From NCBI RefSeq assembly GCF_015999265.1, contig NZ_JAEAGR010000001.1, positions 387,330-411,329 on the forward strand: 24,000 nucleotides of DNA, in the 5' to 3' direction. Source of the stretch: Mobilitalea sibirica (GTDB lineage Bacteria; Bacillota; Clostridia; Lachnospirales; Lachnospiraceae). The translations under genes were made by a program, and so were the position numbers. The notes under the pieces were generated by a model that made no database searches, had not been told where the DNA came from, and was given only the letters and a program-made list of their open reading frames with translations. Within the stretch, counting starts at the first letter, position 1. Every line of letters starts with the position of its first letter. Of this stretch, positions 1,937-15,058 are shown in pieces.

Positions 1937-1942
1937 CTTGAT

Positions 1943-1975
1943 AATAGAGGATAGGCATTATGCTTCTCCTCTATT
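1943..1975 (+). terminator. Possible weak terminator or attenuating hairpin after the MCP gene
   Basis: AATAGAGGA (1943-1951) pairs perfectly with TCCTCTATT (1967-1975) across a 15-nt loop, starting 7 nt after the MCP stop. No clear U-tract follows, so the call is weak. Confidence 0.3.
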
Positions 1976-2064
1976 AGGCTTATCATGTGGATTTTGTAAA
2001 ACAATATAAAATAACACTACTTTATGGCACTTAATAATAAAAATATAAAACTCGGAAAGATAAA

Positions 2065-3090
2065 GTGAAAATGGAAAAAAAGAAAATAAAAGTATTGGTA
2101 GTCGATGATAGTTTTGTATTCAGAGAAGCAATTATAAGAGGTATCATGAAGGACCCGGAGATAGAAGTTGTGGCAAAAGCGGGTGATCCATTTGAGGCAA
2201 GAGATAAAATTCTGGAATTCGAACCTGATGTAATGACCTGCGATGTAGAAATGCCAAAGATGAATGGTATAGACTTTGTCAAAAGACTTCTTCCCCAATA
2301 TCCCATACCGGTTGTCATGGTGAGCGGAATAAGTGGTTCTGTTTTTGATGCAATGAAAGCAGGGGTGGTAGATTTTGTTGTAAAGCCATATAAAAGTGGA
2401 CCGGAGCAAATACAGTTGTTTATAGATGAATTAATTCGAAAAATTAAAATAGCAGCGGCATCCAAGGTGACTTTAGGAAAAAATAATACCTCAAATCAGA
2501 TTTTAGAAGCTAAAAATTTGAGGAATGACAAAATTGTTGCTATTGGTGCATCTACTGGTGGAACAGAAGCAATATCCAAGATTTTGGTTCAACTTCCTTC
2601 AGATTTTCCGGGAATTGTCGTGGTACAACATATTCCACCTATGTTTTCCCGCATGTTTGCCGAAAGACTTAACAATCAAACAAAACTTCATGTGAAAGAA
2701 GCCGAAACCGGTGACTATATCGAACAGGGAAAAGTATTGGTAGCACCAGGTGATCAACATATTTTGGTAAAAAGAATCGGAACCCGTTTTAGAATTGAAG
2801 CTTTCTATGGAGAGAAGGTCAATGGGCATTGTCCTTCTGTTGATGTTTTATTTGACTCAATAGCAAAAGAGGTAGCTGATAAAGCAATAGGCGTCATATT
2901 AACCGGTATGGGTAATGATGGTGCCAAGGGTTTACTGGCAATGAGAAGACAAGGAGCGCATACCATCGGGCAAGATGAGATCTCTTCAGTCGTATATGGC
3001 ATGCCAAAAGTAGCTTACGATATAGGCGCGGTAGAAAAGCAAATGGCCCTATCAAATATATCTAATGCATTAATCAATATGTTAAAATAA
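2065..3090 (+). CDS. cheB: Chemotaxis response regulator protein-glutamate methylesterase CheB (REC + CheB_methylest)
   Basis: 341 aa. REC domain: KVLVVDDS...VMTCDVEMPKMNGIDF...VMVSG...KP. Methylesterase motifs: AIGASTGG (Ser), VVVQHIPP (His), LTGMGNDGA (Asp). The track start is GTG 2065; ATG 2071 is an equally plausible start. Confidence 0.92.
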   Translation: MKMEKKKIKVLVVDDSFVFREAIIRGIMKDPEIEVVAKAGDPFEARDKILEFEPDVMTCDVEMPKMNGIDFVKRLLPQYPIPVVMVSGISGSVFDAMKAGVVDFVVKPYKSGPEQIQLFIDELIRKIKIAAASKVTLGKNNTSNQILEAKNLRNDKIVAIGASTGGTEAISKILVQLPSDFPGIVVVQHIPPMFSRMFAERLNNQTKLHVKEAETGDYIEQGKVLVAPGDQHILVKRIGTRFRIEAFYGEKVNGHCPSVDVLFDSIAKEVADKAIGVILTGMGNDGAKGLLAMRRQGAHTIGQDEISSVVYGMPKVAYDIGAVEKQMALSNISNALINMLK

Positions 3091-3136
3091 TTATTAGATT
3101 TTTCAAATTTTTAACCTGAAGTGGGGATATAACTGT

Positions 3137-6100
3137 ATGAGATTAAATCAAGATAAACAATGCCTATCAATTCGTCAAATTATTTTAGTTATATTTGTTT
3201 TAACCTTTATAATAGGTGCGGGTATGATTATATATTTAAATAATTATTCATGGAAAAAATCTATTGATAAAACAATTGTAGAGTATGTAAATAATATGAA
3301 TAATGAAATCATAAGAGAAATCGATGATATGGTTAGCATACCAATTAAAATGAATGAAAATAACCAGTTTATGATTAAAAATGAAATAATTGATATTAAC
3401 AATTCTGCAGAGAGAGAGCCATTTTTAGCTAATATAGTAAATACCAGTATCGATGAAATCTATAGTGTAAGTTATGGTTTGGAGAATGGGGATTTTTATG
3501 GGGCAAGAAGAAATTCTAATAATGAATTGGAACTTTATCAAAGTACAAAAGAAACGAAAGGCCATTCATTATATTATTCTGTAAATGAGAATTTAACTGC
3601 TGAGCATTTAATAAGTGATTTTGGTTTGTTTGACCCAAGAACCAGAGATTGGTATATAATTGCAAAAGAAAAAGGTGAACCAGTATTTGCTCCATTATAT
3701 AAGCATTTTGTAAAAGAGGATTTGGTGCTATCAGCTGCCTATCCTATATATAAGAATGATATTATACAAGGAGTTTTGGGCGTTCACCTTACATTGAATA
3801 GATTAAATTCCAATTTAAAAAAACTAGTAGAGAAAACCAATACCAAAGCTTATATCATTGAAGCTGATGGGCAAGCTCTCGTTGCGAATTCTATGGAACA
3901 ATCTAACTTTACGATTTTGGAAGATGGTACATATGATAGAAGAAAATTAGAAGATATCGCTGACTCTTCTATTATGAAGGCCTTTGAACTTTATGAGAAT
4001 GAAAATACAAGTTTACAATTAATGAATACGGAGAATGATAAATTTCATATAAACATAACGGATTACCAAAAACATGGTTTACAATGGAGTGTTATTATCT
4101 CTGTGCCTGAGCAATTATTCATGAAGGATAATTCTTTATTGTTCAAGATTTCAATGATGTTGTTGTTTCTAATAATTATTGTATCAATTTATATTTTTGC
4201 CAGAGTGTCAAAGCATTATCTCAAACCGGTGAATGATTTAGTCCAAGCTGCTGACAGTTTTTCAAAGGGGGACTTAACAAAAAGAGCTATTATATATAGA
4301 AATGATGAAATAGGTTCAATATCAAAGTCTTTCAATCATTTGGCAGATAAAATTCAGTCACTTATTAATAACCTGGAAGATAAAGTTGCCGAAAGGACGA
4401 AAGAATTGGAGGCAGCAGTTACTGAGTTAAAAAAAGTGAATAAAAATTTAAGTCTCGAGAAAAATAGAGCGGAAGCAGCCAGTATAGCAAAAAGTCAGTT
4501 TTTAGCTAATATGAGTCATGAAATCAGAACACCCATGAATGGTATAATCGGTTTTTTGCAACTTCTTGATGATTCTCCTTTGAATGAAGAGCAAAAAGAG
4601 TATATTCAATTGATTCAGAGTTCTACTGATACATTATTAACTGTTATCAATGATGTTCTTGATATTTCTAAAATTGAAACAGGAATGATGAAATTAGAAA
4701 GCATACCGTTTCATTTAACTTCCTTGATAGAAACAGCAGTAACACTTTTTGGAACCAGAGCAAAAGAAAAGGGATTGGAACTAAATTTAATGATTAGTTC
4801 GCAAGTGCCCTATAATGTAATAGGAGATCCTACACGAATTAGACAAGTGTTAAATAATCTTATCAACAATGCTATTAAATTTACTGAGAGTGGAGAAGTC
4901 TATGTTGAGGTATCACTTGTGAAGGAGAACGAACAAGAGATAGTAGTTTTATGTAAGGTGAAAGATACCGGAATAGGTATTAATAAGTCGGATATTAATA
5001 AATTATTCCGACCATTTAGTCAGGTGGATACTTCCATGACGAGAAAATATGGGGGTTCCGGATTAGGTTTGTCAATATGCAAAAAAATAGCAGACCTTAT
5101 GGGGGGCGATATTAAAGTAATAAGTAAAAAGAAGAAAGGCAGTACATTTTCATTTACTTTTCCACTACTCAAAAATGAAAAAGCAACAGCGCTTGAAATT
5201 TCTGACTATGCTATCTTAAAAGATAAAAAAATATTAATTATTGATGATGTAGCAATGAACCGGTATATTGCTGCTGCATACCTAACAGAGTTTGGGTGTA
5301 TGGTTGCAGAAGCAAAATCAAATGATTATGCACAGATATTACATAACAAAGCACAAAATAATGACTTTTATGATGTAATATTAATAGATTACCGATTAAA
5401 CGAAACCACTGGATTTGATGTGCTTCATAAGATAAAAGGGTCTATAAAAACAATGAATACTGCCTTCGTTTTAATTACTACGATAGCCTCTAATCAAGAA
5501 GCAGAAGGAGCAGGCCAGATTGGGTTTGAAGGTTTTATTACGAAACCATACAAAAAAGTAGAACTGTTAGATTGCATTGCAGTCGTTTTAGGAGAAAAAG
5601 AATTAATGAGAAATGATCCGATTGAACTTATAACAAAACATAAGATTCGGGAATCAAGATATAATGACAGATTAAAAATATTACTCGTAGAAGATAATGT
5701 AATTAATACAAAGTTTTTCATCAAATTAATAAACAAGCATAACCTTTTTTGTGATGTAGCTAAAAACGGGCTGGAAGCTGTAAAAGCATGTGATATGAAA
5801 CAGTATGATTTAATATTCATGGATTGTCAGATGCCGATCATGGATGGATATGAAGCAACGAAACAAATACGTGCGAAAGAAAAATCCGGAAAGCATACAA
5901 TAATCATTGCCATGACAGCCTTTGCTATGTCTGGAGATGCGGAAAAATGCATGGAAGTAGGTATGGATGACTATCTAAGTAAACCAATCATTGCTGATCA
6001 GTTGATGGATTTGATCAATAAATACAGTAATAAAATTTTTAATAAAGAGTCATCGAATGATGATGATGATTATTTTGAAAAAGTAATTAAACAACTGAGG

Positions 6101-6403
6101 GAAGATACTGATTTCAGCCATGAAGATGCGGAAGAAATTATCATTGAATTTCGTGATCATGCCCTCAAGACAGTTGAAACAATTAAGCAGTTATTTGAAG
6201 ATGGAAAAATAGAAGAGGTTCAATTATATCTACATCAATTAAAGGGGTCAGCAGGAAATGTTAGGGCTAAAGAGATTGCATCCCTAGTTGAGGATATGGA
6301 AAAGCATCTAAAAAAAGACGTTAGTATTGCAGAAATCAATAATGTCTTAGAGAGTATTTTATCAAAAGTAAAACAGTTATTTGTTAAGGTAGGGAGGTCT
6401 TAA
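3137..6403 (+). CDS. Hybrid sensor histidine kinase: TM - Cache-like extracytoplasmic domain - TM - HAMP - HisKA - HATPase_c - REC - REC - HPt
   Basis: 1088 aa. Cache-type signature DPRTRDWYIIAKEKGEPVFAPLY...VLSAAYPIY. HAMP: PVNDLVQAADSFSKGDLTKR. H-box: FLANMSHEIRTPMNGIIG. N/G boxes: NLINNAIKFT, DTGIGI, GGSGLGLSI. REC1 has acceptor D in VILIDYRLNETTG. REC2 is canonical (DLIFMDCQMPIMDGYE...MTA...KP). C-terminal HPt motif: HQLKGSAGNVRA. Confidence 0.92.
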   Translation: MRLNQDKQCLSIRQIILVIFVLTFIIGAGMIIYLNNYSWKKSIDKTIVEYVNNMNNEIIREIDDMVSIPIKMNENNQFMIKNEIIDINNSAEREPFLANIVNTSIDEIYSVSYGLENGDFYGARRNSNNELELYQSTKETKGHSLYYSVNENLTAEHLISDFGLFDPRTRDWYIIAKEKGEPVFAPLYKHFVKEDLVLSAAYPIYKNDIIQGVLGVHLTLNRLNSNLKKLVEKTNTKAYIIEADGQALVANSMEQSNFTILEDGTYDRRKLEDIADSSIMKAFELYENENTSLQLMNTENDKFHINITDYQKHGLQWSVIISVPEQLFMKDNSLLFKISMMLLFLIIIVSIYIFARVSKHYLKPVNDLVQAADSFSKGDLTKRAIIYRNDEIGSISKSFNHLADKIQSLINNLEDKVAERTKELEAAVTELKKVNKNLSLEKNRAEAASIAKSQFLANMSHEIRTPMNGIIGFLQLLDDSPLNEEQKEYIQLIQSSTDTLLTVINDVLDISKIETGMMKLESIPFHLTSLIETAVTLFGTRAKEKGLELNLMISSQVPYNVIGDPTRIRQVLNNLINNAIKFTESGEVYVEVSLVKENEQEIVVLCKVKDTGIGINKSDINKLFRPFSQVDTSMTRKYGGSGLGLSICKKIADLMGGDIKVISKKKKGSTFSFTFPLLKNEKATALEISDYAILKDKKILIIDDVAMNRYIAAAYLTEFGCMVAEAKSNDYAQILHNKAQNNDFYDVILIDYRLNETTGFDVLHKIKGSIKTMNTAFVLITTIASNQEAEGAGQIGFEGFITKPYKKVELLDCIAVVLGEKELMRNDPIELITKHKIRESRYNDRLKILLVEDNVINTKFFIKLINKHNLFCDVAKNGLEAVKACDMKQYDLIFMDCQMPIMDGYEATKQIRAKEKSGKHTIIIAMTAFAMSGDAEKCMEVGMDDYLSKPIIADQLMDLINKYSNKIFNKESSNDDDDYFEKVIKQLREDTDFSHEDAEEIIIEFRDHALKTVETIKQLFEDGKIEEVQLYLHQLKGSAGNVRAKEIASLVEDMEKHLKKDVSIAEINNVLESILSKVKQLFVKVGRS

Positions 6404-6406
6404 TGA

Positions 6407-7285
6407 ATGGAAAAAGTGATGATCATTGATGATTCTCCGATTGACCGTAAAATGATTAAATTAGCATTGAAAAGTAAATTACCTGACATTCAGTTGATAG
6501 AAGCAGACCATGGTAAAAATATTGAAGAGATTTTATATTCACAGAAAGTCGATGTATGTATACTTGATATCATGATGCCGGAGAGGAATGGATTAGAGAT
6601 ATTAAAGGAAATAAAAGAAAAGGAAAGATATAGGGATATACCGATTATTGTTTGTTCAGGATTATATGATTGTGATATCTTAGAAAAAGCACTGGAGTTA
6701 GGGGCGCATGATTATTTTTCAAAACCACTGGGAAAAAAAGAAATCTCTATTTCTCTTCCTTTAAAAGTAAAAAATGCAATCGAACTTATGAAGTGGAAGG
6801 AAAAAATATTATACCTAAGTTATCATGATGTATTAACCGGATTATATAACAGAAGATTTGTGGAAGAAGAACTAATTCAATTAGATGAATTAGAAAAATT
6901 CCCCATATCTATTATTTTAGGCGATGTCAATGGATTGAAACATACAAATGATGTCTTCGGTCACGAAGCAGGTGATGAGATGTTAAAAAGAATTGCTCAT
7001 ATACTTCAAAAAGAATGCGTTAATGGTAGAGTGGCCCGTTATGGCGGCGATGAGTTTGTAGTTCTATTACCTGAAACAAACATTATGGAAGCTAAGAAAA
7101 TGATTGAATCAATTAAGGACCATTGTATAACGCAAACAAAAGACTCTGTAAAATTATCCATATCTTTAGGTTGTGCTATGAAGAGCAAAGGTAAAAAGAG
7201 CATGAAGCGCATTTTACAAGAAGCGGAGGATATGATGTATAATGATAAACTTCAGTATAGACAAATATACCAAACTAATCCGTGA
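6407..7285 (+). CDS. Response regulator-diguanylate cyclase (REC-GGDEF)
   Basis: 292 aa. The start lies 3 nt after the hybrid-kinase stop, with GGGAGG at 6391-6396. REC: MIIDDS...VCILDIMMPERNG...KP. GGDEF domain: HDVLTGLYNRR...GDVNGLKHTNDVFGHEAGD...RYGGDEFVVLL. The GGDEF codons are 7043-7057. Confidence 0.92.
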   Translation: MEKVMIIDDSPIDRKMIKLALKSKLPDIQLIEADHGKNIEEILYSQKVDVCILDIMMPERNGLEILKEIKEKERYRDIPIIVCSGLYDCDILEKALELGAHDYFSKPLGKKEISISLPLKVKNAIELMKWKEKILYLSYHDVLTGLYNRRFVEEELIQLDELEKFPISIILGDVNGLKHTNDVFGHEAGDEMLKRIAHILQKECVNGRVARYGGDEFVVLLPETNIMEAKKMIESIKDHCITQTKDSVKLSISLGCAMKSKGKKSMKRILQEAEDMMYNDKLQYRQIYQTNP

Positions 7286-7404
7286 AAAAAGTTAACAATT
7301 TCTTAGATATTAGACTTACATGACAATACTGGTGAAATTTTTACTAAAATAACAATAATTACCAAGCTGTCAAATAACATAATAAATACTGAGGAGAAAC
7401 AGAT

Positions 7405-9210
7405 ATGGAGAAAACACAAATGAAAAAATTTGTTGATGGTAAGGTTTTATTACAATGGTTTTATTTTGGGTTTCAGGAGGTGTACCAAAATAAGAAGTAT
7501 CTAAATGCGATTAATGTGTTCCCCGTTGCTGATGGTGATACCGGCACTAACTTATCTATAACACTAAAGGCAATGGTAGAAAAACCAATAAAGGTTAATA
7601 CATTTTCAGGAATGCTTCAGGCTATTTCTGAGGCGGGTCTAGCCAATGCAAGAGGTAATTCTGGTATTTTATTTGCATCTTACGTAAATGGTATTGCCTC
7701 TGAGGGAAGTAGCTATAAGGAAGTGACTTTGGAACAATTTTCAAGCATAGCCTATAAAGCAGTTTCTTATCTTTATCAGGCTGTGGAAAAGCCGATAGAG
7801 GGTACCATGATCAGTGTAATAAAGGATTGGGCTAATTACTTATATCAAAATTTTCAAAATTACGATAATTTCAAAGACCTTTTTGCTAATGCTTACCTAA
7901 CAGCTCAAAATTCGCTGAAAATGACAACATCACAGTTAGAAGTGCTTAAAAAAAATAAAGTTGTAGACTCTGGAGCGGATGGTTTTGTAAGATTTTTAAA
8001 TGGAATTAATTATTATTATTTGGCGAAAAAAGAAGTTAAAAGTGATAATGAAGTACAAGACAGTTTTAATCTCAGTAACCATGAGCAAAGTAACTATCTA
8101 TATTGTACTGAATTTTTTATGGATATATCCGAAAAGGATATCGTACCTATACGCAAAGATTTAAAAAAAATAATTCGGGACAAAATCAACCAGTTGGGTG
8201 ATTCTTTGATAATTACATCGTTTCAGGATAAAGTAAAAATTCATATTCATACAGATGTACCAGAAATAGTGGCACAAAGTTTGCGACCCTTTGGTACATT
8301 CATTGAACATAAAGTTGATAACATGCATCTTCAAAATAGTATAAAAACAAGACAATTAAGTAGGATTGGAATAGTTACAGATTCAATTGCTGATATACCG
8401 GAGGACTATAAATTAAAACATCAAATACATACATTACCATTGGGGCTGCTTATTGATGATTCCGTATATCTGGATAAGTCAACGATTAAGTTGGAACAGC
8501 TTTTTCATCTTATGAAAGATGCTGAAAGTTATCCAACGAGCTCTCAACCGGAACCTGGCAGAGTTTCTATTTTTCTTGATAACTTATTAGAAACCTATGA
8601 TTATTTAATTTTCATAACAGTTTCAAGTGAGTTGAGTGGTACATATCAGACAATACAGCAAGAAATTAAAAAGATAAAGGATGCTGAAAAAAAGATAACA
8701 TTGATTGATTCAAAAACGAATTCCGGTGCAGAAGGCTTACTGGTAAAATATGCTTCCAATCTACTCAATAATGGTTTATCTTATGAAGAGATTGCTAAAA
8801 AGGTAAAAGAACAAATTCCCAAGACTTATATCTATGTATGTCTGAATACCCTGGAATATGCAGTAAGAAGTGGGCGTGTACCCAACACAGTAGGTAAGGT
8901 TGGTATGAAGTTGGGCCTAAGACCAATCATGACAATAGATAGGAACGGAAAAGGGGCAGCTTTTGGTGTTGGATTTAGTCAGAAGGGTATGACAAAGAAA
9001 ATATTCAACCTCATAAAATCAACGATTGCCAGAAAAGGAATTCAGAGTTACTGTATCGTACATGCAGATAATCTGGAATTAGCTATGGAATATAAAAGTG
9101 AATTAACGAAAATGATTGGTAAAGAACCTGAGTTTATTACAGAAATATCTTCTGTCGTAGCTATACATTCCGGTTTAGGGTGTGTTGCAGTCTGCTTTAC
9201 TGAAAATTAA
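7405..9210 (+). CDS. Dak2 (DhaL/FakA-like N-terminal + central region) fused to a DegV (FakB-like fatty-acid-binding) domain
   Basis: 601 aa. N-terminus has INVFPVADGDTGTNL (the Dak2 nucleotide-binding DGDTGTN motif) and ARGNSG. The central region has YLYCTEFFM...KVKIHIHTDVPE, as in YloV/FakA. From aa ~320 (nt ~8362) there are DegV signatures: RIGIVTDSIADIPEDY and YPTSSQPEPG. RBS GAGGAG lies upstream of ATG 7405. Confidence 0.85.
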   Translation: MEKTQMKKFVDGKVLLQWFYFGFQEVYQNKKYLNAINVFPVADGDTGTNLSITLKAMVEKPIKVNTFSGMLQAISEAGLANARGNSGILFASYVNGIASEGSSYKEVTLEQFSSIAYKAVSYLYQAVEKPIEGTMISVIKDWANYLYQNFQNYDNFKDLFANAYLTAQNSLKMTTSQLEVLKKNKVVDSGADGFVRFLNGINYYYLAKKEVKSDNEVQDSFNLSNHEQSNYLYCTEFFMDISEKDIVPIRKDLKKIIRDKINQLGDSLIITSFQDKVKIHIHTDVPEIVAQSLRPFGTFIEHKVDNMHLQNSIKTRQLSRIGIVTDSIADIPEDYKLKHQIHTLPLGLLIDDSVYLDKSTIKLEQLFHLMKDAESYPTSSQPEPGRVSIFLDNLLETYDYLIFITVSSELSGTYQTIQQEIKKIKDAEKKITLIDSKTNSGAEGLLVKYASNLLNNGLSYEEIAKKVKEQIPKTYIYVCLNTLEYAVRSGRVPNTVGKVGMKLGLRPIMTIDRNGKGAAFGVGFSQKGMTKKIFNLIKSTIARKGIQSYCIVHADNLELAMEYKSELTKMIGKEPEFITEISSVVAIHSGLGCVAVCFTEN

Positions 9211-9239
9211 TATTACTATAATGATAAAGGAGAATTACT

Positions 9240-10022
9240 ATGAAGATTATTGAGTTATCATCTTTAAGACGGTTTAATTTTTTTATGGGAATACTACATT
9301 TCCTCCAAGGTTGTTTTATGCTTTTTGTATCATTGAATATAGAAAAGGTTAAAAGCTTTACACCAGCTATTTTATCATACTATTTAACCTTTGATACAAA
9401 TCAAATGCGCCTGGTTACTGATGTGAATGAATTATTTCATTTACCATTTGGTATTTTGGTTTCTGCCTTTTTATTTGTCTCTGCAATAGCCCATTTTATT
9501 ATTGTCTTACCCGGAACCAATGGAATATATAACAGAGGACTGGAGAAAGGAATTAATCATTTCCGATGGTATGAATATTCTATCAGTTCTTCTATTATGA
9601 TCGTACTAATCTCGGTTTTATTTGGGGTTTATGATATTGGTGCATTAATTTTAATCTTTGCAGTAAATGCATCTATGAACTTATTTGGTTTATTAATGGA
9701 AAAGATAAATCAGTTTACAAAAAAATCTGATTGGAGTCCTTTTATATATGGAACAATCGCCGGTATTGCTCCTTGGATTGTAATACTGCTATATGCATTT
9801 GGTAACAGTGAACCGGATAAAATTCCATGGTTTGTATATGCCATTGTCTCTTCCTACTTTATATTCTTTAATCTATTTCCGATTAATATGGTTCTTCAGT
9901 ATCTTAAGGTTGGAAGATGGAAGAACTATCTGTATGGTGAGAAAATTTACATTGTTTTAAGCTTGGTTGCAAAATCAATATTAGCATGGCTTGTTTTTTC
10001 CGGTGTTATGCAACCTAATTAA
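9240..10022 (+). CDS. Heliorhodopsin (7-TM retinal-binding protein)
   Basis: 260 aa, about 7 hydrophobic helices. AAAGGAG at 9226-9232 lies 7 nt before the ATG, and only 29 nt separate it from the upstream stop. Motifs: GILHFLQ (H20), AIAHFI (H85), FRWYEYSISSSIMIVLI (E112, codon 9573-9575), VNASMNLFG, YIVLSLVAKSILAWLVFSG (K245, codon 9972-9974). They align with the heliorhodopsin 48C12 motifs I recall: FRWVEYSLSSS, NASMILFG, YIVLSLVAKSALAW (Schiff-base Lys). Confidence 0.85.
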   Translation: MKIIELSSLRRFNFFMGILHFLQGCFMLFVSLNIEKVKSFTPAILSYYLTFDTNQMRLVTDVNELFHLPFGILVSAFLFVSAIAHFIIVLPGTNGIYNRGLEKGINHFRWYEYSISSSIMIVLISVLFGVYDIGALILIFAVNASMNLFGLLMEKINQFTKKSDWSPFIYGTIAGIAPWIVILLYAFGNSEPDKIPWFVYAIVSSYFIFFNLFPINMVLQYLKVGRWKNYLYGEKIYIVLSLVAKSILAWLVFSGVMQPN

Positions 10023-10312
10023 TTAAGTGGTATGAGAGATAATACTATAAGAAAGACCATGAATTAATAGATAACCACTAGATGCTTACTTAATTACATA
10101 AACCATTATTATAAGAATGAATAATGATGGCAATAAGTATATATTGTATTACAGAATTCTGAACATGAGATATCAGTGCCATTTGCACTGTGAATAATGA
10201 CGAAAGGCACTTTTATTCATGGGTTTATTATTATAGTATAACTATGTAGAGAATATCTACTAACATATACTTATGTCTCCCCCCCAATGACATAGTGATC
10301 CTTTTTTCCACC

Positions 10313-10350
10313 TTAAGATACGCCCTGTTATGTAACAGGGCGTATCTTAA
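10313..10350. repeat. Perfect inverted repeat with 18-nt arms and a 2-nt spacer (strong hairpin or operator candidate)
   Basis: TTAAGATACGCCCTGTTA TG TAACAGGGCGTATCTTAA, read directly. It has a GC-rich core in an AT-rich spacer. A T6 run lies just upstream (10302-10307) and no T-run follows. It ends about 4 nt before the AAAGGAG at 10354-10360. Confidence 0.7.
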
Positions 10351-10399
10351 ATCAAAGGAGACTTTTTAATTGGAAACTATAATGCTGAGGAGTGGTACT

Positions 10400-11335
10400 A
10401 TGGAAAAAACAGAAATTATTATTCATACTAAATTAACAATTGGAGTTAGTGCATGTTGTATGGGAAGTCCAGTAAGATACAACGGAAAGGGGTGGGATTT
10501 ACTTAAAAATCTAGGACGGGAAAAGAATGATTTTCGATGGTGTCCTGTTTGTCCTGAGTGTATGGCCGGTTTAGGAGTGTTAAGAGAACCTATACGTCTG
10601 TCTGGAGGAGATGGAACTAAAGTATGGACCGGAGATGCTGAAGTGAAAAATCGTAAAGGTGAGATTGTTACTAATAAGGTGATAGAAGGTGCTTTAGCAT
10701 GTATAGAGGCCTTAAGCAGGGCTGGTGCCATAGCATATGTGTATATGGACGGAAGTCCCTCCTGCGGAGTGTACCGGACAACCCTAAAAAATACAAACAG
10801 AGGAAATCCTCCAGGTGTTTTTGGTGCAAAACTTTTGGAACTTGGATTTTTCCTAATACCGGCATCTGATTTACAAAGTCCACTAAAGTGGTGGGATTGG
10901 AGGAGACGTTTATTAGCTTTTTATTGGTTGAAAAATGTGCCATTGGATTCGAAAAACCAATTATATGAGGCTTGGTATAAAACAAAATTCTTATGCAGAG
11001 AGCTTAATCAAGAATGGACTCAAAATATTGGAAGAAATCTTGCATTAATCGTAGAAGAAGATGTTAAGGAGTTTGGTGATAGGTTTCGTAAGGAAGCCTT
11101 GGATTTACTTCGAAAGCCTTCTAATACAAAAAAAATTACCAATAGTTTATGGGCACAGTATTCATATTATAAAAAACTTCAAGGAAAATCAATAGAAGAA
11201 ATAAATGCTCCGGAAATCAAAAGAAATGTTACGTCAATTGCAAAAGAACTGTTACTTATGGAACGAAAAGCACATGAAGATAAAGTGTTTTTTGGCACTT
11301 CTCCTGTGCTTTATCGCGATAAAAGAAGCAATTAG
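10400..11335 (+). CDS. DUF523 (TudS-like [4Fe-4S] 2-thiouracil desulfidase domain) fused to DUF1722 (YbgA-like)
   Basis: N-terminal IGVSACCMGSPVRYNGKG, CPVCPECMAGLGVLREP and DGSPSCGV give the three-Cys DUF523 pattern. The C-terminal ~170 aa are helical and Trp-rich (WWDWRRRLLAFYWLK...), like YbgA/DUF1722. I prefer ATG 10400 (GAGGAG at 10387-10392). The track start TTG 10370 (AAAGGAG at 10354-10360) cannot be excluded. Confidence 0.8.
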   Translation: MEKTEIIIHTKLTIGVSACCMGSPVRYNGKGWDLLKNLGREKNDFRWCPVCPECMAGLGVLREPIRLSGGDGTKVWTGDAEVKNRKGEIVTNKVIEGALACIEALSRAGAIAYVYMDGSPSCGVYRTTLKNTNRGNPPGVFGAKLLELGFFLIPASDLQSPLKWWDWRRRLLAFYWLKNVPLDSKNQLYEAWYKTKFLCRELNQEWTQNIGRNLALIVEEDVKEFGDRFRKEALDLLRKPSNTKKITNSLWAQYSYYKKLQGKSIEEINAPEIKRNVTSIAKELLLMERKAHEDKVFFGTSPVLYRDKRSN

Positions 11336-11354: not shown

Positions 11355-12113
11355 ATGATTCATACGATGCTTTTTATTTTTGCCTATTTTCTATTATTCT
11401 TTATCATAGGAACGATAAGAAAAAACAATTCTATTGTAGATATAGGATGGGGATTAGGATTCGTTGCAGTCGCTTGGGACATACTTCTGATTACAGATGA
11501 AATCAAACTAAGTCAATGGCTTATTGTTCTATGTGTTTCTACTTGGGGTTTAAGGTTATTTATACATATTTATAAACGAAATAAAGGAAAGCCAGAGGAC
11601 TTTCGGTACGCAGCTTGGAGGAGAGAATGGGGAAAATGGCTCATACCCAGATCATTTTTTCAAATCTATATGCTACAAGCGTTTTTTATGTTTATAATCG
11701 CACTCCCAATTATTTTTACCCGGTATATTAATGATGAAGTACAATTAGGAATACTTATCATTGGATTCTTAATTTGGATAACTGGGTTTTGCTTTGAAGT
11801 GGTAAGCGACAATCAACTGAGAGTTTTTTTAAAGAAACAGGAAAATAGAGGTAAGCTTATGATGGATGGTCTCTGGCGCTTTACCAGACATCCTAATTAT
11901 TTTGGCGAAGCTACCTTGTGGTGGGGAATATATTTAATGGCATTGAGCTTAGGAGTGCCGGTACTTACAATTATCAGCCCAATTACGATCACTGTGCTTT
12001 TAGTTTTTGTATCTGGAATTCCCCTGTTAGAGAATTCAATGAAAAACAAACCAGAGTATCAAGAATATGCTGAAAAGACGAGTATATTTATACCCTGGTT
12101 TCCAAAAAAATAG
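11355..12113 (+). CDS. DUF1295 family polytopic membrane protein (steroid-5-alpha-reductase / ICMT-like fold)
   Basis: SIVDIGWGLGFV, WGLRLFIHIYKRNKGKPEDFRY and LWRFTRHPNYFGEATLWWG are the hallmark DUF1295 motifs. I prefer ATG 11355, with GGAGAGGAGG at 11335-11344. The 11205 start in the track would overlap the upstream gene by 131 nt. Confidence 0.8.
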   Translation: MIHTMLFIFAYFLLFFIIGTIRKNNSIVDIGWGLGFVAVAWDILLITDEIKLSQWLIVLCVSTWGLRLFIHIYKRNKGKPEDFRYAAWRREWGKWLIPRSFFQIYMLQAFFMFIIALPIIFTRYINDEVQLGILIIGFLIWITGFCFEVVSDNQLRVFLKKQENRGKLMMDGLWRFTRHPNYFGEATLWWGIYLMALSLGVPVLTIISPITITVLLVFVSGIPLLENSMKNKPEYQEYAEKTSIFIPWFPKK

Positions 12114-12130
12114 TGGAGGTAATAATTATT

Positions 12131-12526
12131 ATGCAACTTATCCGTAATTACATAATTACTCTTGTGGTGTTTTTAATCATTGATATGGTTTGGCTTTCTG
12201 TTATAGCAAGGCCAATCTATAAAAAGTATCTGGGATACATAATGGCTGAAAAAGTCAATCTTTTTGCTGCGTTTTTGTTCTATACCATCTTTATACTTGG
12301 AATTGTAGTATTTGTACTTAATCCAGCATTTATGAAAGGTAATTGGTCTTCAGCTTTACTTATGGGAGCATTCTTTGGTTTAGTAACCTATTCAACCTAC
12401 GACCTTACAAATCTTGCGACTGTGAAAGAGTGGCCCATATTTATTACGGTAGTTGACTTATTATGGGGAAGTTTTGTAAGTGGAATTACTTCATTAATTA
12501 GTTATCTGATTATAAAATCAATGTAA
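12131..12526 (+). CDS. DUF2177 family small membrane protein
   Basis: 131 aa, 4 predicted TM helices. LVVFLIIDMVWL...Y...L and GLVTYSTYDLTNLATVKEWP...VDLLWG match the DUF2177 pattern I recall. GGAGG at 12115-12119 precedes ATG 12131. The alternative GTG 12113 overlaps the upstream stop. Confidence 0.7.
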   Translation: MQLIRNYIITLVVFLIIDMVWLSVIARPIYKKYLGYIMAEKVNLFAAFLFYTIFILGIVVFVLNPAFMKGNWSSALLMGAFFGLVTYSTYDLTNLATVKEWPIFITVVDLLWGSFVSGITSLISYLIIKSM

Positions 12527-12917: not shown

Positions 12918-13304
12918 ATGAAAAAAAATCTTGAATTTTATAGGTGTAAGCATTGTGGAAATTTAATAGTTTTTATTAATAAATCTATAGAACAGGTGAC
13001 TTGTTGTAATGAAAAAATGATGAGTATTTCTCCCAACACAGTAGAAGCTTCTGTTGAAAAGCATTTACCGGTTGTTCGATTTGAAGGTAACAAAACTAGC
13101 GTATCTGTAGGTAGTATTGAACACCCCATGAATCCTGAGCATTATATTGAGTGGATCGTACTTGAGACAGATCATGGTTTCCGGATTGAATATCTGGAAC
13201 CAGGTAATAAACCTGAAGTATTCTTTAATAAGGATGAGGCTATGCCGATAGCCGTTTATGCATATTGTAATTTGCATGGATTATGGAAAACAGATATGGT
13301 ATAG
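12918..13304 (+). CDS. dfx: Desulfoferrodoxin (2Fe superoxide reductase)
   Basis: 128 aa. The N-terminal desulforedoxin-like site is YRCKHCGNLI...VTCCNEKM. The SOR domain has EKHLPVV, HPMNPEHYIEWI and AYCNLHGLWK (His/Cys ligands of centre II). It is collinear with Desulfovibrio Dfx as I recall it. Confidence 0.9.
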   Translation: MKKNLEFYRCKHCGNLIVFINKSIEQVTCCNEKMMSISPNTVEASVEKHLPVVRFEGNKTSVSVGSIEHPMNPEHYIEWIVLETDHGFRIEYLEPGNKPEVFFNKDEAMPIAVYAYCNLHGLWKTDMV

Positions 13305-13344
13305 ATTAAATATTTATGTATCATCATGTGAAAGGATGAAGCAA

Positions 13345-13857
13345 ATGCTAAACAAAGAAGTGCTACATTTATTAAATCAACAGATCAACAAAGAGCTGTA
13401 TTCCGCATATCTTTATTTGGATATGGCAAATTATTATGCAGATCAAAATCTTAGTGGATTTGAGAACTGGTTCTATGTACAGGCTCAAGAGGAACGTGAC
13501 CATGCAATGTTGTTTCGTCAGTATTTGATAAACAATGGCGAGCGTATCGTATTAGAAGAAATTGCTGCCCCGGATAAAAAATATATCTCATTTCGAGATC
13601 CCCTTATAATTTCTTTCGAGCATGAGAAATACGTAACAGATTCTATTAATATAATATACAATGCTGCAAATCAAATAAAAGATTTTCGTACAATGCAATT
13701 TTTAGATTGGTTTATCAAAGAGCAGGGTGAAGAAGAAAAGAATGCCGATGATAATATTAAAAAGTTTGATTTATTTGCCGGTGATTCAAAAGGACTTTTT
13801 ATGTTGGATAATGAGATGAAATCCAGAATTTATAATCCACCGTCTTTGCTATTATAA
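13345..13857 (+). CDS. ftn: Non-haem ferritin
   Basis: MLNKEVLHLLNQQINKELYSAYLYLDMANYY...QAQEERDHAM...EHEKYVTDSIN...FLDWFIKEQGEEE shows the ferroxidase-centre E, ExxH, E and QxxE pattern. I prefer ATG 13345 (AAAGGA about 8 nt upstream). The track start 13258 overlaps dfx and is unlikely. Confidence 0.85.
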   Translation: MLNKEVLHLLNQQINKELYSAYLYLDMANYYADQNLSGFENWFYVQAQEERDHAMLFRQYLINNGERIVLEEIAAPDKKYISFRDPLIISFEHEKYVTDSINIIYNAANQIKDFRTMQFLDWFIKEQGEEEKNADDNIKKFDLFAGDSKGLFMLDNEMKSRIYNPPSLLL

Positions 13858-14005
13858 AACGGAGTATATAATATAGTTGCTAATTCATAGAGGGGAATAT
13901 ATGTAGCTAGAGCCGGTGTTCAAGCTGATTTATACTGAGAGTATACGGTGGATCATACGGGAAGATAGATTGAGATGTAATTATAAAATAATAGAAATAA
14001 TCAGT

Positions 14006-14042
14006 AAAGGCTTGCATCAATTTGATGTAGGCTTTTATCTTT
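14006..14042 (+). terminator. Rho-independent terminator candidate downstream of ferritin
   Basis: AAAGGCTTGCATCA (14006-14019) pairs with TGATGTAGGCTTTT (14023-14036): 14 bp including 3 G-U pairs, with a 3-nt loop. A T-rich tail TTTTATCTTT follows. Confidence 0.5.
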
Positions 14043-14281
14043 AATATATTAAGTGCTATAAATCATTTTTGAAATATAAAATTGGATATTAATGCGGATC
14101 TGGTAGAAAATATCCGGTCATCACTGTAACTTTCGTTCATCCTACCTCGGACAAAATTCTCACCCACGCGCTCATAATTTCTTTCGAGAGAAGCATACCC
14201 GGGATTTTATAGTTGTTTTTGATTGGATACCGAATACGAATAGTTTCGCTGGAAACAATAAGATTTGGAGGTGATTTTACT

Positions 14282-15055
14282 ATGATATCACGAAAATCAG
14301 TTATAACGTTTGGTATGGTCGCAATCCCAATTGCGATGTTTACAGCTACACAGGATAACGACATTCATTTTAATCAGCTGCATAAGGAAGATAATAGTCG
14401 CATTCGTTACAAGAAAAGTTGTGCCCATTGTGGAAAAGAAATTAAAGGTGAAGATATTGTTAAGGGATTTGAGTATGATGATGACAAGTATGTCGTCATT
14501 ACAGACGAAGAAATAGAGAAAATTAAAACAGAAAAAGAAAAGTCAATCCAGATCTTACATTTTGCCCAGTTAAACCAGATTTCCCCTGTCTACTATGAAA
14601 AGACCTATCAGGCGGCCCCTGAGGCAGGAGGTGAAAAGGCCTTCGAGTTGCTCAGGTCTGCTTTGATGGCAGAACAAAAGATTGCCATAGGTAAAACTGT
14701 CCTGGGAACCAAGGATACACTGATGGCAATTATACCGCGGGAGGATGGTGTGCTCATTTCCACTATGCACTATGCTGACGAGGTTAAAGCGCTACAAAGA
14801 CAGTATAATAAGCCGAATATATCCGAACAGGAGCTTGGCATGGCAAAAATGCTAATCAATTCAATGGATACACCCTTTGATCCTTCGAAATATAAAGACG
14901 AATACCAGACAAGACTTCGGGAGCTTATCGAGACTAAAATATCCGGCAAAGAGGTTGTGGCTGCTGAACCTGTAAGCGAAGGTAAGGTAATTGATCTTAT
15001 GGAGGCCCTTAGAGCGAGCGTGGAAAAAGCAAAGACAGACAAAGAAACGGCTTAA
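14282..15055 (+). CDS. ku: Ku DNA end-binding protein (bacterial NHEJ)
   Basis: MISRKSVITFGMVAIPIAMFTAT...IRYKKSCAHCGKEIKGEDIVKGFEY...YVVITDEE...PVYYEKTYQAAPE..GEKAFELLRSAL is the canonical bacterial Ku core. GGAGG at 14267-14271 precedes ATG 14282. The track start 14213 is probably too early. Confidence 0.9.
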   Translation: MISRKSVITFGMVAIPIAMFTATQDNDIHFNQLHKEDNSRIRYKKSCAHCGKEIKGEDIVKGFEYDDDKYVVITDEEIEKIKTEKEKSIQILHFAQLNQISPVYYEKTYQAAPEAGGEKAFELLRSALMAEQKIAIGKTVLGTKDTLMAIIPREDGVLISTMHYADEVKALQRQYNKPNISEQELGMAKMLINSMDTPFDPSKYKDEYQTRLRELIETKISGKEVVAAEPVSEGKVIDLMEALRASVEKAKTDKETA

Positions 15056-15058
15056 TAT

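Follow-up and report, generated by a model that had tools for sequence, protein, structure and literature searches.

Organization of the heliorhodopsin locus of Mobilitalea sibirica

The window, by which we mean the whole analyzed stretch of 24,000 nt of DNA from Mobilitalea sibirica, a bacterium isolated from a microbial mat, contains a heliorhodopsin (HeR) gene that directly follows a gene encoding a Dak2–DegV fusion protein. The features of this region are as follows:

7286..7404, + strand: upstream spacer of 119 nt, with a mediocre sigma-70-like match (GTGAAA-16-AATAAT, 7332–7359)
7405..9210, + strand: Dak2 + FakA-middle + DegV fusion, 601 aa, putative single-chain fatty-acid kinase (Pfam, NCBIfam, AF2, Foldseek)
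9211..9239, + strand: junction of 29 nt with the Shine–Dalgarno sequence AAGGAGA (9227–9233); no hairpin and no credible promoter
9240..10022, + strand: heliorhodopsin, 260 aa, with predicted Schiff-base lysine K245 and counter-ion E112 (Pfam, NCBIfam, alignment)
10023..10399, + strand: structured non-coding spacer (fold z = -5.2)
10400..11335, + strand: DUF523/2-thiouracil-desulfurase-like gene with a weak DUF1722 C-terminal half (YbgA-like; PF04463, E 7e-26)
11355..12113, + strand: DUF1295 gene (Pfam, E 3e-72)
12113..12526, + strand: gene of the small membrane protein DUF2177 (Pfam, E 4e-44)

The HeR protein matched 242 of the 242 positions of Pfam model PF18761 (E 3e-101; 338 bits versus a cutoff of 26.7), and it also exceeded the cutoff of the NCBIfam equivalog NF038020 (322.7 bits versus 100). 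Lysine 245 was aligned with the SLVAKS lysine of TaHeR, which forms the retinal Schiff base in TM7, and glutamate 112 in TM3 was aligned with the position occupied by glutamate in TaHeR (6is6) and by aspartate in the E108D mutant (7clj). Residues H20, H85, E112, and K245 were invariant among 22 HeRs. As judged from its sequence, HeR is encoded intact. No retinal-synthesis gene was found within the 24,000-nt window.

The DegV-family, DUF1295, and DUF2177 genes are all + strand genes, no more than 2.6 kb from HeR; the latter two, downstream from HeR, were missed in the preliminary description of this DNA. The protein encoded between HeR and DUF1295 scored 91 bits against PF04463 (cutoff 34.7), while its DUF1722 half (PF08349), though at the expected position, remained below the cutoff of 22.5 bits (15.8–17.9 bits, E 0.004–0.017). 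This gene has an alternative start at TTG 10370, and members of the same DUF523-like family were also found 3′ of DUF1295 in two of the compared loci (L094, L158). The longest DUF1295 open reading frame begins at 11205, but it matches the family only from residue 65 onward, and therefore ATG 11355 is the likely start. Genes of a superoxide reductase, a ferritin-like protein, Ku, and LigD lie further downstream on the same strand.

The fusion protein combines FakA-type and FakB-type modules

The comparison with Pfam assigned residues 40–201 of the fusion to Dak2 (E 4e-28), residues 231–311 to the FakA-like middle domain (FakA-like_M, PF21645; E 2e-17), and residues 321–600 to DegV (E 2e-64). 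The DegV match was full-length (218 bits for PF02645, and 242.5 bits versus a cutoff of 99.7 for TIGR00762). Ten residues (N37, D43, D45, T46, N85, D188, C234, H280, H282, and R491) were invariant among 28 homologues and matched the catalytic residues of FakA and FakB, the roles of which have been described (PMC9136124). The Dak2 site N37/D43/D45/T46/N85/D188 corresponds to N32/D38/D40/T41/N82/D185 of Staphylococcus aureus FakA, with the +5 offset of the numbering taken from the match to 7rm7. The invariant C234/H280/H282, with the H-phi-H motif in KIHIHTD, corresponds to the FakA Cys-His-His triad C240/H282/H284. The invariant R491 was aligned with the arginine of the GGR motif of 2dt8, 1pzx, and 3fys, and is the counterpart of R173 in FakB1, with the correspondence of DegV residues to S. 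aureus numbering being an inferred, ungapped offset. In the carboxylate-binding network S411 was invariant among the same homologues, while T378, S379, and H588 were conserved in at least 90% of the sequences.

The predicted fold leads to the same assignment. In the AF2 model of the fusion (pLDDT 88, pTM 0.85) the N-terminal domain was matched by Foldseek to S. aureus FakA_N with a TM score of 0.93 and an rmsd of 1.6–1.9 Å, and the C-terminal domain, which has the EDD fold, was matched to more than 40 FakB/DegV chains with TM scores of 0.84–0.90. The fusion thus resembles the FakA/FakB systems of S. aureus and Streptococcus suis (7RM7, 7W7H, 6ALW) in the Asn/Asp/Asp/Thr residues that bind Mg-ADP in Dak2, in the Cys-His-His middle domain, in the catalytic arginine of DegV, and in the fold of both modules. 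On the other hand, those systems consist of two components, while here there is one polypeptide, in which the C-terminal FakB-docking domain of FakA is absent and a full fatty-acid-binding DegV domain stands in its place. The fusion also scored far below the NCBIfam cutoffs for FakA (NF038248, 149.6 bits versus 975), YloV (TIGR03599, 249 bits versus 396), and FakB1, and its operon partners, DUF1295 and DUF2177, differ from those of the housekeeping Fak system. Hence, the domain assignments of the preliminary description, an ATP-binding module of FakA and an acyl-chain module of FakB type, were correct, and the predicted protein unites a kinase module of the FakA type with a fatty-acid-binding module of the FakB type, as a putative functional analogue of FakA plus FakB rather than a FakA orthologue. 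It looks catalytically complete, with kinase activity suggested by the conserved residues and the predicted fold.

Junction and spacers

The stop codon of the fusion (TAA, 9208–9210) and the ATG of HeR at 9240 are separated by 29 nt, and the AAGGAGA sequence ends 6 nt before this ATG. The scan of the gap for terminator-like or promoter-like sites on the + strand found none; the TATAAT at 9217–9222 has neither a TG extension nor a good −35 element. The region 9180–9270 folded worse than its shuffled versions (z = +1.55), which indicates that it is unstructured. The description of the junction given earlier, with a separate ribosome binding site and neither hairpin nor credible promoter, was therefore confirmed. 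Because the two genes are on the same strand, 29 nt apart, with no terminator or promoter between them, the fusion and HeR are probably co-transcribed in M. sibirica.

The limits of the transcription unit are less clear than had been proposed. The spacer of 119 nt was found as described, between an upstream REC-GGDEF gene and the fusion, but it contained no terminator-like hairpin (fold z = -1.1). The spacer 3′ of HeR, which had been given as 375 nt long and AT-rich, is also present; it is 347 nt long if TTG 10370 is the start of the next gene, and 377 nt long if the start is ATG 10400. Its GC content (31.5%), however, does not fall below the 31.2% of the HeR gene. A possible terminator-like hairpin is located at 10175–10211 in this spacer, with UUUAUU after it; a second hairpin, which is perfect, GC-rich, and of 17 bp, lies at 10313–10350, just 5′ of the ribosome binding site of the DUF523-like gene. 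A simple scan of this spacer found no sigma-70-like site on the + strand. The search of Rfam, with gathering thresholds for the whole window and with E ≤ 1 for 7200–10450, gave nothing credible, so a known riboswitch or sRNA in this spacer was rejected. A pseudogene remnant in 10023–10400 was rejected as well, given that there was no blastx match to any open reading frame of the loci collected in the scans of genomes and metagenomes, and the DNA of this segment was not similar to any of the 168 fetched loci. The 17-bp hairpin occurs only once, and is thus not a dispersed repeat. The view that the two spacers delimit a two-gene unit has to be abandoned: because there is no upstream terminator hairpin and no downstream promoter match, and because the downstream genes belong to the same conserved set, the boundaries of the unit cannot be set from sequence alone. 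Since the structured spacer of 347–377 nt separates HeR from DUF523-DUF1295-DUF2177, the five genes may be transcribed as two units.

Heliorhodopsin loci with and without the lipid genes

The 80 HeR loci nearest to the HeR of the window, taken from species-representative genomes, contained the fusion in six cases, a stand-alone DegV in two, DUF1295 in seven, and DUF2177 in five, in counts that ignore phylogeny and include many truncated contigs. Iterated profile HMMs and single-sequence phmmer searches identified the same eight DegV and six Dak2 loci. Any member of the module was present in about 10% of these loci, which makes the association sparse; the HeRs of Geodermatophilaceae are found without it. 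At a random-neighbor rate of 0.7–2%, the probability of at least six fusion-positive loci in 80 is ~2e-5 to 5e-3 when phylogeny is ignored, and a single-copy gene would be expected within 10 kb in less than about 1% of loci. The enrichment over random neighbors, which the preliminary description had proposed to examine, was thus observed in this sample, phylogeny ignored, as well as in a test on thousands of HeR loci (Chazan et al. 2021, bioRxiv 10.1101/2021.02.16.431466). The explanation that the genes adjoin by chance, with no functional meaning, could draw on the ~7–10% of the nearest HeR loci that have the fusion or another module member, and on the lack of HeR at metagenomic fusion loci described below. 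We consider it hardly credible, and already disfavored, given the six observed loci, the significance of the independent large-scale test, and the recurrence of the same four families with HeR in at least three lineages in varied arrangements.

The loci of the fusion itself gave a different picture. DUF1295 was located immediately 3′ of the fusion in 50 of the 71 evaluable metagenomic loci, and also directly 3′ in L161, L162, and L165–L168; DUF1295 is the constant partner of the fusion. HeR, in contrast, was near the fusion in none of the 80 metagenomic fusion loci. In L165–L168 the trio of fusion, DUF1295, and DUF2177 was present and HeR was absent, and two of these loci (L166, L167) have flanking genes in common with L161 and L162, in which HeR is present. 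The data showed that the conserved core is a three-gene operon, fusion-DUF1295-DUF2177, which is widespread without HeR, and that HeR was added to it in a minority of monoderm lineages, normally at the 3′ end after DUF2177. Among loci with the same flanks, some have HeR along with the trio and others lack it, and HeR would therefore seem to be an optional light input on an autonomous lipid module.

The set of HeR and lipid genes recurs in Lachnospiraceae, in Izemoplasmatales, and in another Bacillota MAG, with differing orientations. In the orthologous loci L001 and L161, the proteins of which are 57–77% identical to those of the window, the order is fusion-DUF1295-DUF2177-HeR with gaps of 13–45 nt; the canonical order is found in [Clostridium] fimetarium DSM 9179, a second cultured relative. 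Given this order in the closest relatives, the direct contact between fusion and HeR in the window is therefore, by gene order, a local rearrangement; among the loci examined, only the window has the two genes abutting on the same strand. In the Izemoplasmatales loci L033, L043, and L060 the fusion is the immediate divergent neighbor of HeR, with gaps of ~205–210 nt in the first two. Hence, the conservation of the adjacency among HeR loci holds for the co-location, in at least three lineages, but not for the direct same-strand order. Where the set is co-directional, the commonest direct neighbor of HeR is DUF2177 and not the kinase: it is immediately 5′ of HeR in L001, L072, L075, L161, L162, and L163, and the same-strand spacing is 4–45 nt in several lineages. 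These adjacency statistics favor DUF2177 over the kinase as the candidate direct partner of HeR.

These comparisons bear on the model of the preliminary description, in which HeR signals specifically to the fusion and light switches fatty-acid phosphorylation, so that the two proteins make a dedicated sensor–effector pair. The model is consistent with the juxtaposition and probable co-transcription of the genes in the window, with the divergent neighbors in the three Izemoplasmatales loci, and with the predicted retention of all catalytic residues of the fusion. It would also agree with the docking of DegV proteins on membranes for fatty acids and with the lipid bound at the retinal fenestration in HeR crystal structures (both summarized in Chazan et al. 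2021). However, DUF1295 and DUF2177 separate the two genes in the orthologous Lachnospiraceae-type loci, no HeR accompanies the 80 metagenomic fusions, and the trio is unchanged in syntenic HeR-less loci. Moreover, the fusion of the window shows the same identity (58–59%) to fusions linked to HeR as to those without it, and therefore there is no sign of an HeR-specific adaptation or subtype of the kinase. For these reasons we regard a dedicated pair as improbable.

DISCUSSION

The association of HeR with lipid genes is already known as a class, and this locus adds no new kind to it. Chazan et al. (2021) found that DegV and DUF2177, often with DUF1295, are the most HeR-specific neighbors when compared with the background and with proton-pump rhodopsins, reported that Dak2–DegV fusions adjoin HeR in some Firmicutes and Chloroflexi loci, and put forward the remodeling or repair of lipids in a light-dependent manner as a hypothesis. 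The statement that this coupling had not been described was therefore wrong; the neighborhood has also been cited by later papers, and DUF2177 is among the ten frequent operon neighbors of HeR. No paper naming both heliorhodopsin and fatty acid kinase, and no experimental work on the pair, was found in the literature. The window has the same four families on one strand around HeR in a Firmicute, including the Dak2–DegV variant, and leads to the same hypothesis. It differs in the position of HeR directly 3′ of the fusion, and in the YbgA-like gene and the structured spacer of ~350–380 nt before DUF1295-DUF2177. What is added to the published neighborhood is that fusion-DUF1295(-DUF2177) is an autonomous operon, which HeR joins only optionally and then usually at the 3′ end.

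The explanation that we find rather probable is that the fusion, HeR, YbgA-like, DUF1295, and DUF2177 genes are a same-strand, rearranged version of the published HeR-DegV-DUF2177-DUF1295 cluster, with HeR as the light input to a lipid module. As its conserved residues, fold, and family suggest, the fusion would be a single-chain fatty-acid kinase, in which the DegV domain would pick a free fatty acid from the membrane, and Dak2 together with the Cys-His-His triad would phosphorylate it to an acyl-phosphate that could return to phospholipid synthesis. The kinase would work alongside DUF1295, which is membrane reductase- or methyltransferase-like, and the small membrane protein DUF2177. By analogy with the pairs of HeR with glutamine synthetase, photolyase, and an ABC transporter, HeR could provide a light input to this module, which would maintain membrane lipids or repair photo-oxidative damage, probably through the binding of HeR to one of the module proteins. 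For a strict anaerobe in a microbial mat, light would predict exposure to oxygen and reactive oxygen species, and the nearby genes for defense against reactive oxygen species and for DNA repair would fit this role.

Alternatively, the genes could merely share a promoter and a light/oxidative-stress island, with HeR functioning elsewhere and no physical regulation among the products. Most neighbor families of HeR, such as those of oxidative stress, photolyase, and transporters, also adjoin proton-pump rhodopsins, which suggests common regulation and not partnership (Chazan et al. 2021). Photolyase was as frequent near HeR as DegV (each in 8 of 80 loci), the superoxide reductase, ferritin-like, Ku, and LigD genes lie downstream in the window, and HeR is gained or lost with the trio undisturbed. 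On the other hand, DegV and DUF2177 are reported to set HeR neighborhoods apart from those of proton pumps, the same-strand spacing to DUF2177 is tight in several lineages, and the operon neighbor was a direct binding partner in all three HeR systems tested so far. Co-expression as the whole explanation is thus rather unlikely.

These three systems are the experimentally studied pairs of HeR with glutamine synthetase, class II photolyase, and the OmrDE ABC transporter (PMC11109279; bioRxiv 10.1101/2024.05.16.594530). As in them, the HeR of the window is in a predicted operon with a non-photoreceptor protein, and the expected logic would be light-dependent allostery by contact; unlike in them, the candidate partners are several, namely a soluble kinase and two membrane proteins.

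Among related systems is the sigma-E/ChrR regulon of Rhodobacter sphaeroides. Another is the singlet-oxygen regulon of Chlamydomonas, in which DUF2177 and DUF1295 are induced together with cyclopropane-fatty-acid synthases and DUF1365 in a SAK1-dependent manner (PMC4067076). This regulon also places both families and fatty-acid-modifying enzymes under a light-derived oxidant, but the control is transcriptional, with neither a rhodopsin nor a Dak2–DegV kinase, and the link to the window consists of shared families only.

A more specific version of the light-input hypothesis, which we put forward as doubtful, is that HeR, gated by light, allosterically regulates a membrane-lipid repair pathway that is complete in itself and consists of the single-chain fatty-acid kinase, an ene-reductase-like DUF1295, and DUF2177; a DUF1295-like enzyme is known as a membrane ene-reductase. 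In monoderm bacteria light would in this case stand for photo-oxidative damage, and would directly raise the re-activation or editing of membrane acyl chains.

Only three types of HeR effectors have been shown experimentally, and the association with the lipid module is the most HeR-specific genomic signal reported. Our data refine the hypothesis built on it, in that they identify the fusion-DUF1295-DUF2177 operon as the conserved unit and HeR as optional, with DUF2177, not the kinase, tracking HeR most closely. The locus offers a practical test system, with a cultured type strain, M. sibirica P3M-3T, and with all candidate partners of HeR within 5 kb. If the allosteric reading were true, the module would be a fourth, mechanistically new class of HeR effectors, DUF1295 and DUF2177 would gain their first biochemical roles, and the syntenic loci, some with HeR and some without, could be used as natural controls.

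Conservation of the gene neighborhood of heliorhodopsin

The heliorhodopsin (HeR) gene of the window and the genes around it are as follows.

230-7285, + strand: genes of an MCP, CheB, a hybrid histidine kinase and a REC-GGDEF response regulator
7405-9210, + strand: fusion gene, 601 aa, with Pfam domains Dak2 (40-201), FakA-like_M (231-311) and DegV (321-600)
9240-10022, + strand: full-length HeR gene, 260 aa, Pfam E 3e-101
10023-10399: non-coding spacer, strongly structured (fold z = -5.2, MFE)
10370 or 10400 to 11335, + strand: DUF523/2-thiouracil-desulfurase-like gene with a weak, YbgA-like DUF1722 half
about 11355-12113, + strand: DUF1295 gene
12113-12526, + strand: DUF2177 gene
12918-17524, + strand: genes of desulfoferrodoxin (superoxide reductase), a ferritin-like protein, Ku and full LigD

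The locus falls, in rearranged form, into a published class of HeR-DegV-DUF2177-DUF1295 neighborhoods. Thousands of prokaryotic HeR neighborhoods were previously compared with background and with the neighborhoods of proton-pump rhodopsins by Chazan et al. (bioRxiv 10.1101/2021.02.16.431466), who found that the families most characteristic of HeR are DegV and DUF2177, often with DUF1295 alongside, chiefly in Firmicutes and Chloroflexi. The enrichment of HeR and DegV-family adjacency over background, which the preliminary description proposed to examine, was thus already positive in that study. Dak2-DegV fusions beside HeR in Firmicutes were mentioned there as well. The same authors hypothesized light-dependent remodelling of membrane lipids or repair of oxidative membrane damage, so the coupling cannot be called undescribed, as it had been; the idea of a link between light and lipids is reasonable, and it is already published. 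Our literature search found no paper naming heliorhodopsin and fatty acid kinase together. The association with lipid genes was cited again later (PMC9385722), and DUF2177 is among ten frequent HeR operon neighbors (PMC11109279), while a preprint on Geodermatophilaceae reported that the association is not universal.

The 80 loci nearest to the window's HeR (56-75% identity) were collected from GTDB species-representative genomes, and neighbors within 10 kb of HeR were assigned using phmmer, iterated HMMs and blastp clustering.

Table. Genes found near HeR in the 80 HeR loci
Dak2-FakA_M-DegV fusion: 6/80; L001 ([Clostridium] fimetarium), L075 (Lachnospiraceae), L033, L043 and L060 (Izemoplasmatales), L039 (Bacillota)
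Stand-alone DegV: 2/80; L018, L019
DUF1295: 7/80; L001, L033 (partial), L035, L039, L043, L072, L075
DUF2177: 5/80; L001, L035, L039, L072, L075
Class II photolyase: 8/80; L036, L039, L045, L053, L055, L057, L065, L067 (directly adjoining and divergent from HeR in six; only nearby in L036 and L039)

The data showed that the fusion occurs near HeR more often than the 0.7-2% expected of a random neighbor for a single-copy gene (p ~2e-5 to 5e-3, uncorrected for phylogeny). The adjacency of the two genes noted earlier therefore recurs as a neighborhood, but direct contact between fusion and HeR was seen in the window and in no other locus examined. The order fusion-DUF1295-DUF2177-HeR on one strand was observed in L001 and L075, and also in L161 and L162, the nearest metagenomic relatives (HeR 77% identical), where the gaps are 13, 23 and 45 nt. 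DUF2177 is immediately 5′ of HeR in L072 and in the further locus L163, while in Izemoplasmatales the order is DUF1295-fusion, divergent from HeR. Because the four proteins of the window are 57-77% identical to their counterparts in the differently ordered L001 and L161, the window contains that set of genes, with their order rearranged. Chance could in principle have placed such genes side by side, but the recurrence of the set across three lineages, together with the published statistics, makes this unlikely.

Some HeR loci had further peculiarities. In L039 the photolyase, fusion, DUF1295 and DUF2177 genes occur together on the strand opposite to HeR. In L013-L015, L018, L019, L021, L023 and L024, Syntrophomonadaceae-type loci among them, HeR is extended at its N-terminus by MORN repeats to a total of about 392 aa; beside it are a divergent gene of a DUF1475 small membrane protein (L018, L019, L021, L023, L024) and a divergent DUF3159 gene (L018, L019, L021 and L024, absent in L023). 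A DUF1475 gene is also located between DUF1295 and DUF2177 in L075.

Conservation of the gene neighborhood of the fusion

The fusion belongs to a large family, with E <= 0.001 for 4375 of the 8000 candidate proteins scored, and its architecture is common to all of the best 120 matches. Among 80 metagenomic fusion loci, 71 could be evaluated for DUF1295, which in 50 of them directly follows the fusion on the same strand; DUF2177 was adjacent in at least 19 loci, and HeR was found in none of the 80. On the long contigs L165-L168, which carry four of the nearest homologues, the arrangement was in each case fusion-DUF1295-DUF2177 without HeR. Two of these, L166 and L167, with fusions that share 64-66% identity with the L161 one, have the same flanks as the HeR-positive L161 and L162: upstream galT, an epimerase, galK, two HTH regulators and an AsnC-type regulator, and downstream ApbE, an unannotated gene, UbiA and a polyprenyl synthase. 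ApbE directly follows the three genes in the HeR-less pair L166 and L167. Hence, HeR is polymorphic in presence at a syntenic site after DUF2177, while the trio of fusion, DUF1295 and DUF2177 is unchanged. The HeR-less loci, the lack of HeR in the metagenomic sample and the shared flanks together show that the trio is a conserved autonomous unit and HeR an optional gene, usually appended at its 3′ side.

These observations bear on the model of a dedicated HeR-to-kinase pair, which was proposed in the preliminary description. Such a pair is possible, and the two genes are neighbors in the window, but it is disfavored by the uniqueness of this gene order, by the distribution of the fusion independently of HeR, and by the fact that no HeR-specific kinase subtype was seen.

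Transcriptional organization of the locus

The fusion-HeR junction was re-found as originally described, with the fusion stop codon at 9208-9210, AAGGAGA at 9227-9233, TATAAT at 9217-9222 and the HeR ATG at 9240. The TATAAT has no usable -35 element, and a consensus scan of the + strand of the gap detected neither promoter-like nor terminator-like sites. The region 9180-9270 also folds less than its own shuffles (z = +1.55). Because the gap is unstructured and has no such matches, co-transcription of the fusion and HeR genes is a sound inference from the sequence.

There is less support for the view that the flanking spacers mark off a unit of two genes. The spacers exist (119 nt upstream, 347-377 nt downstream), but the upstream one has no terminator-like hairpin, and no terminator was detected between the signalling genes at 230-7285 and the fusion gene. 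The downstream one has no sigma-70-like match on the + strand, its GC content, described as low, is not below that of the HeR gene, and the genes past it are members of the same conserved set. This downstream spacer contains a possible terminator-like hairpin (10175-10211) followed by UUUAUU, and, at 10313-10350, a GC-rich hairpin of 17 perfect base pairs that lacks a U-tract on both strands. The spacer could be a terminator, attenuator, operator or processing site. It matched no Rfam family, and it contained no coding remnant and no sequence similar to any in 168 related loci.

The DUF523-like, DUF1295 and DUF2177 genes, on the same strand downstream of HeR, were absent from the preliminary description. 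The true starts of DUF1295 and DUF2177 are probably further downstream than those of the longest ORFs (11205, giving a 131-nt overlap with the preceding gene, and GTG 12113, respectively); ATG 11355 and ATG 12131 agree better with family matches and orthologues. The first long-stem terminator-like site on the + strand past DUF2177 is at 14004-14038. The interposed DUF523/YbgA-like gene separates HeR from DUF1295, and the same family occurs 3′ of DUF1295 in two metagenomic fusion loci (L094, L158). Thiouracils, the substrates of TudS-type enzymes, are chromophores in the near UV, and E. coli ybgA shares an operon with photolyase.

The hybrid histidine kinase upstream of the fusion has 1088 aa (dCache-HAMP-HisKA-HATPase-2xREC-Hpt). 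In L001, too, the fusion is preceded by a REC-GGDEF gene, and 17 of the 80 HeR loci have GGDEF/HD-GYP-type genes at most 10 kb from HeR, a frequency that may be background.

Properties and possible functions of the encoded proteins

The initial domain-level reading of both proteins was correct and the feature is real; each protein is 100% identical to an NCBI entry of Mobilitalea sibirica (Lachnospiraceae). The N-terminal two-thirds of the fusion align with S. suis FakA (7w7h_A, residues 22-325) and the S. aureus FakA N-domain, and the C-terminal third with many DegV/FakB structures. In FakA, residues N32, D38, D40, T41, N82 and D185 contact ADP-Mg2, while C240, H282 and H284, and R173 of FakB1, are further catalytic residues (Subramanian et al., PMC9136124). 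Their counterparts in the window (N37, D43, D45, T46, N85, D188, C234, H280, H282, R491) are all ten invariant among 28 homologues of 49-59% identity. The AlphaFold2 model is confident (pLDDT 88, pTM 0.85), with its N-domain matching S. aureus FakA_N (TM 0.93, rmsd 1.6-1.9 Å) and its C-domain FakB/DegV chains (TM 0.84-0.90). Given these matching residues and folds, the fusion is best read as a putative single-chain fatty-acid kinase, which differs from FakA in that it carries the fatty-acid-binding domain itself, where FakA has a C-terminal FakB-docking domain. It is not an orthologue of FakA, FakB1 or YloV, because its NCBIfam scores are far below those cutoffs. HeR scored 322.7 bits against an NCBIfam equivalog cutoff of 100 and retains K245, its Schiff-base lysine, and E112, its counter-ion glutamate; the latter is aligned with the site changed in the TaHeR E108D structure.

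The fusion would bind free fatty acid and convert it into acyl-phosphate, a step for which family knowledge and the conserved residues give good grounds. The roles of DUF1295 and DUF2177 beside it are inferred. DUF1295 belongs to the steroid-5-alpha-reductase/ICMT/PEMT superfamily (Pfam), and a fungal DUF1295-like enzyme is a membrane ene-reductase (PMC8597850). The SAK1-dependent genes that singlet oxygen induces in Chlamydomonas include DUF2177 and DUF1295, as well as DUF1365 and two cyclopropane-fatty-acid synthases (PMC4067076). M. sibirica was obtained from a microbial mat and is strictly anaerobic (PMC8104048), and the genes after DUF2177 form an anaerobe-type set for defence against ROS and double-strand-break repair. 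The most economical reading is that the trio would serve membrane-lipid maintenance and the response to photo-oxidative damage, with HeR as a light input added onto this lipid module. HeR probably binds some protein of the module, as the three HeR systems studied to date suggest by analogy (summarized in PMC11109279 and the Geodermatophilaceae preprint); adjacency points to DUF2177 as the first candidate partner, and the fusion or DUF1295 may also serve. Co-regulation alone, with no contact between HeR and the lipid proteins, is a further possibility.

The locus has practical value, as the strain is cultured and the genes of all candidate partners fit into about 5 kb. The hypothesis is also sharper now, with the trio as the core, HeR optional, and DUF2177 the closest tracker of HeR.
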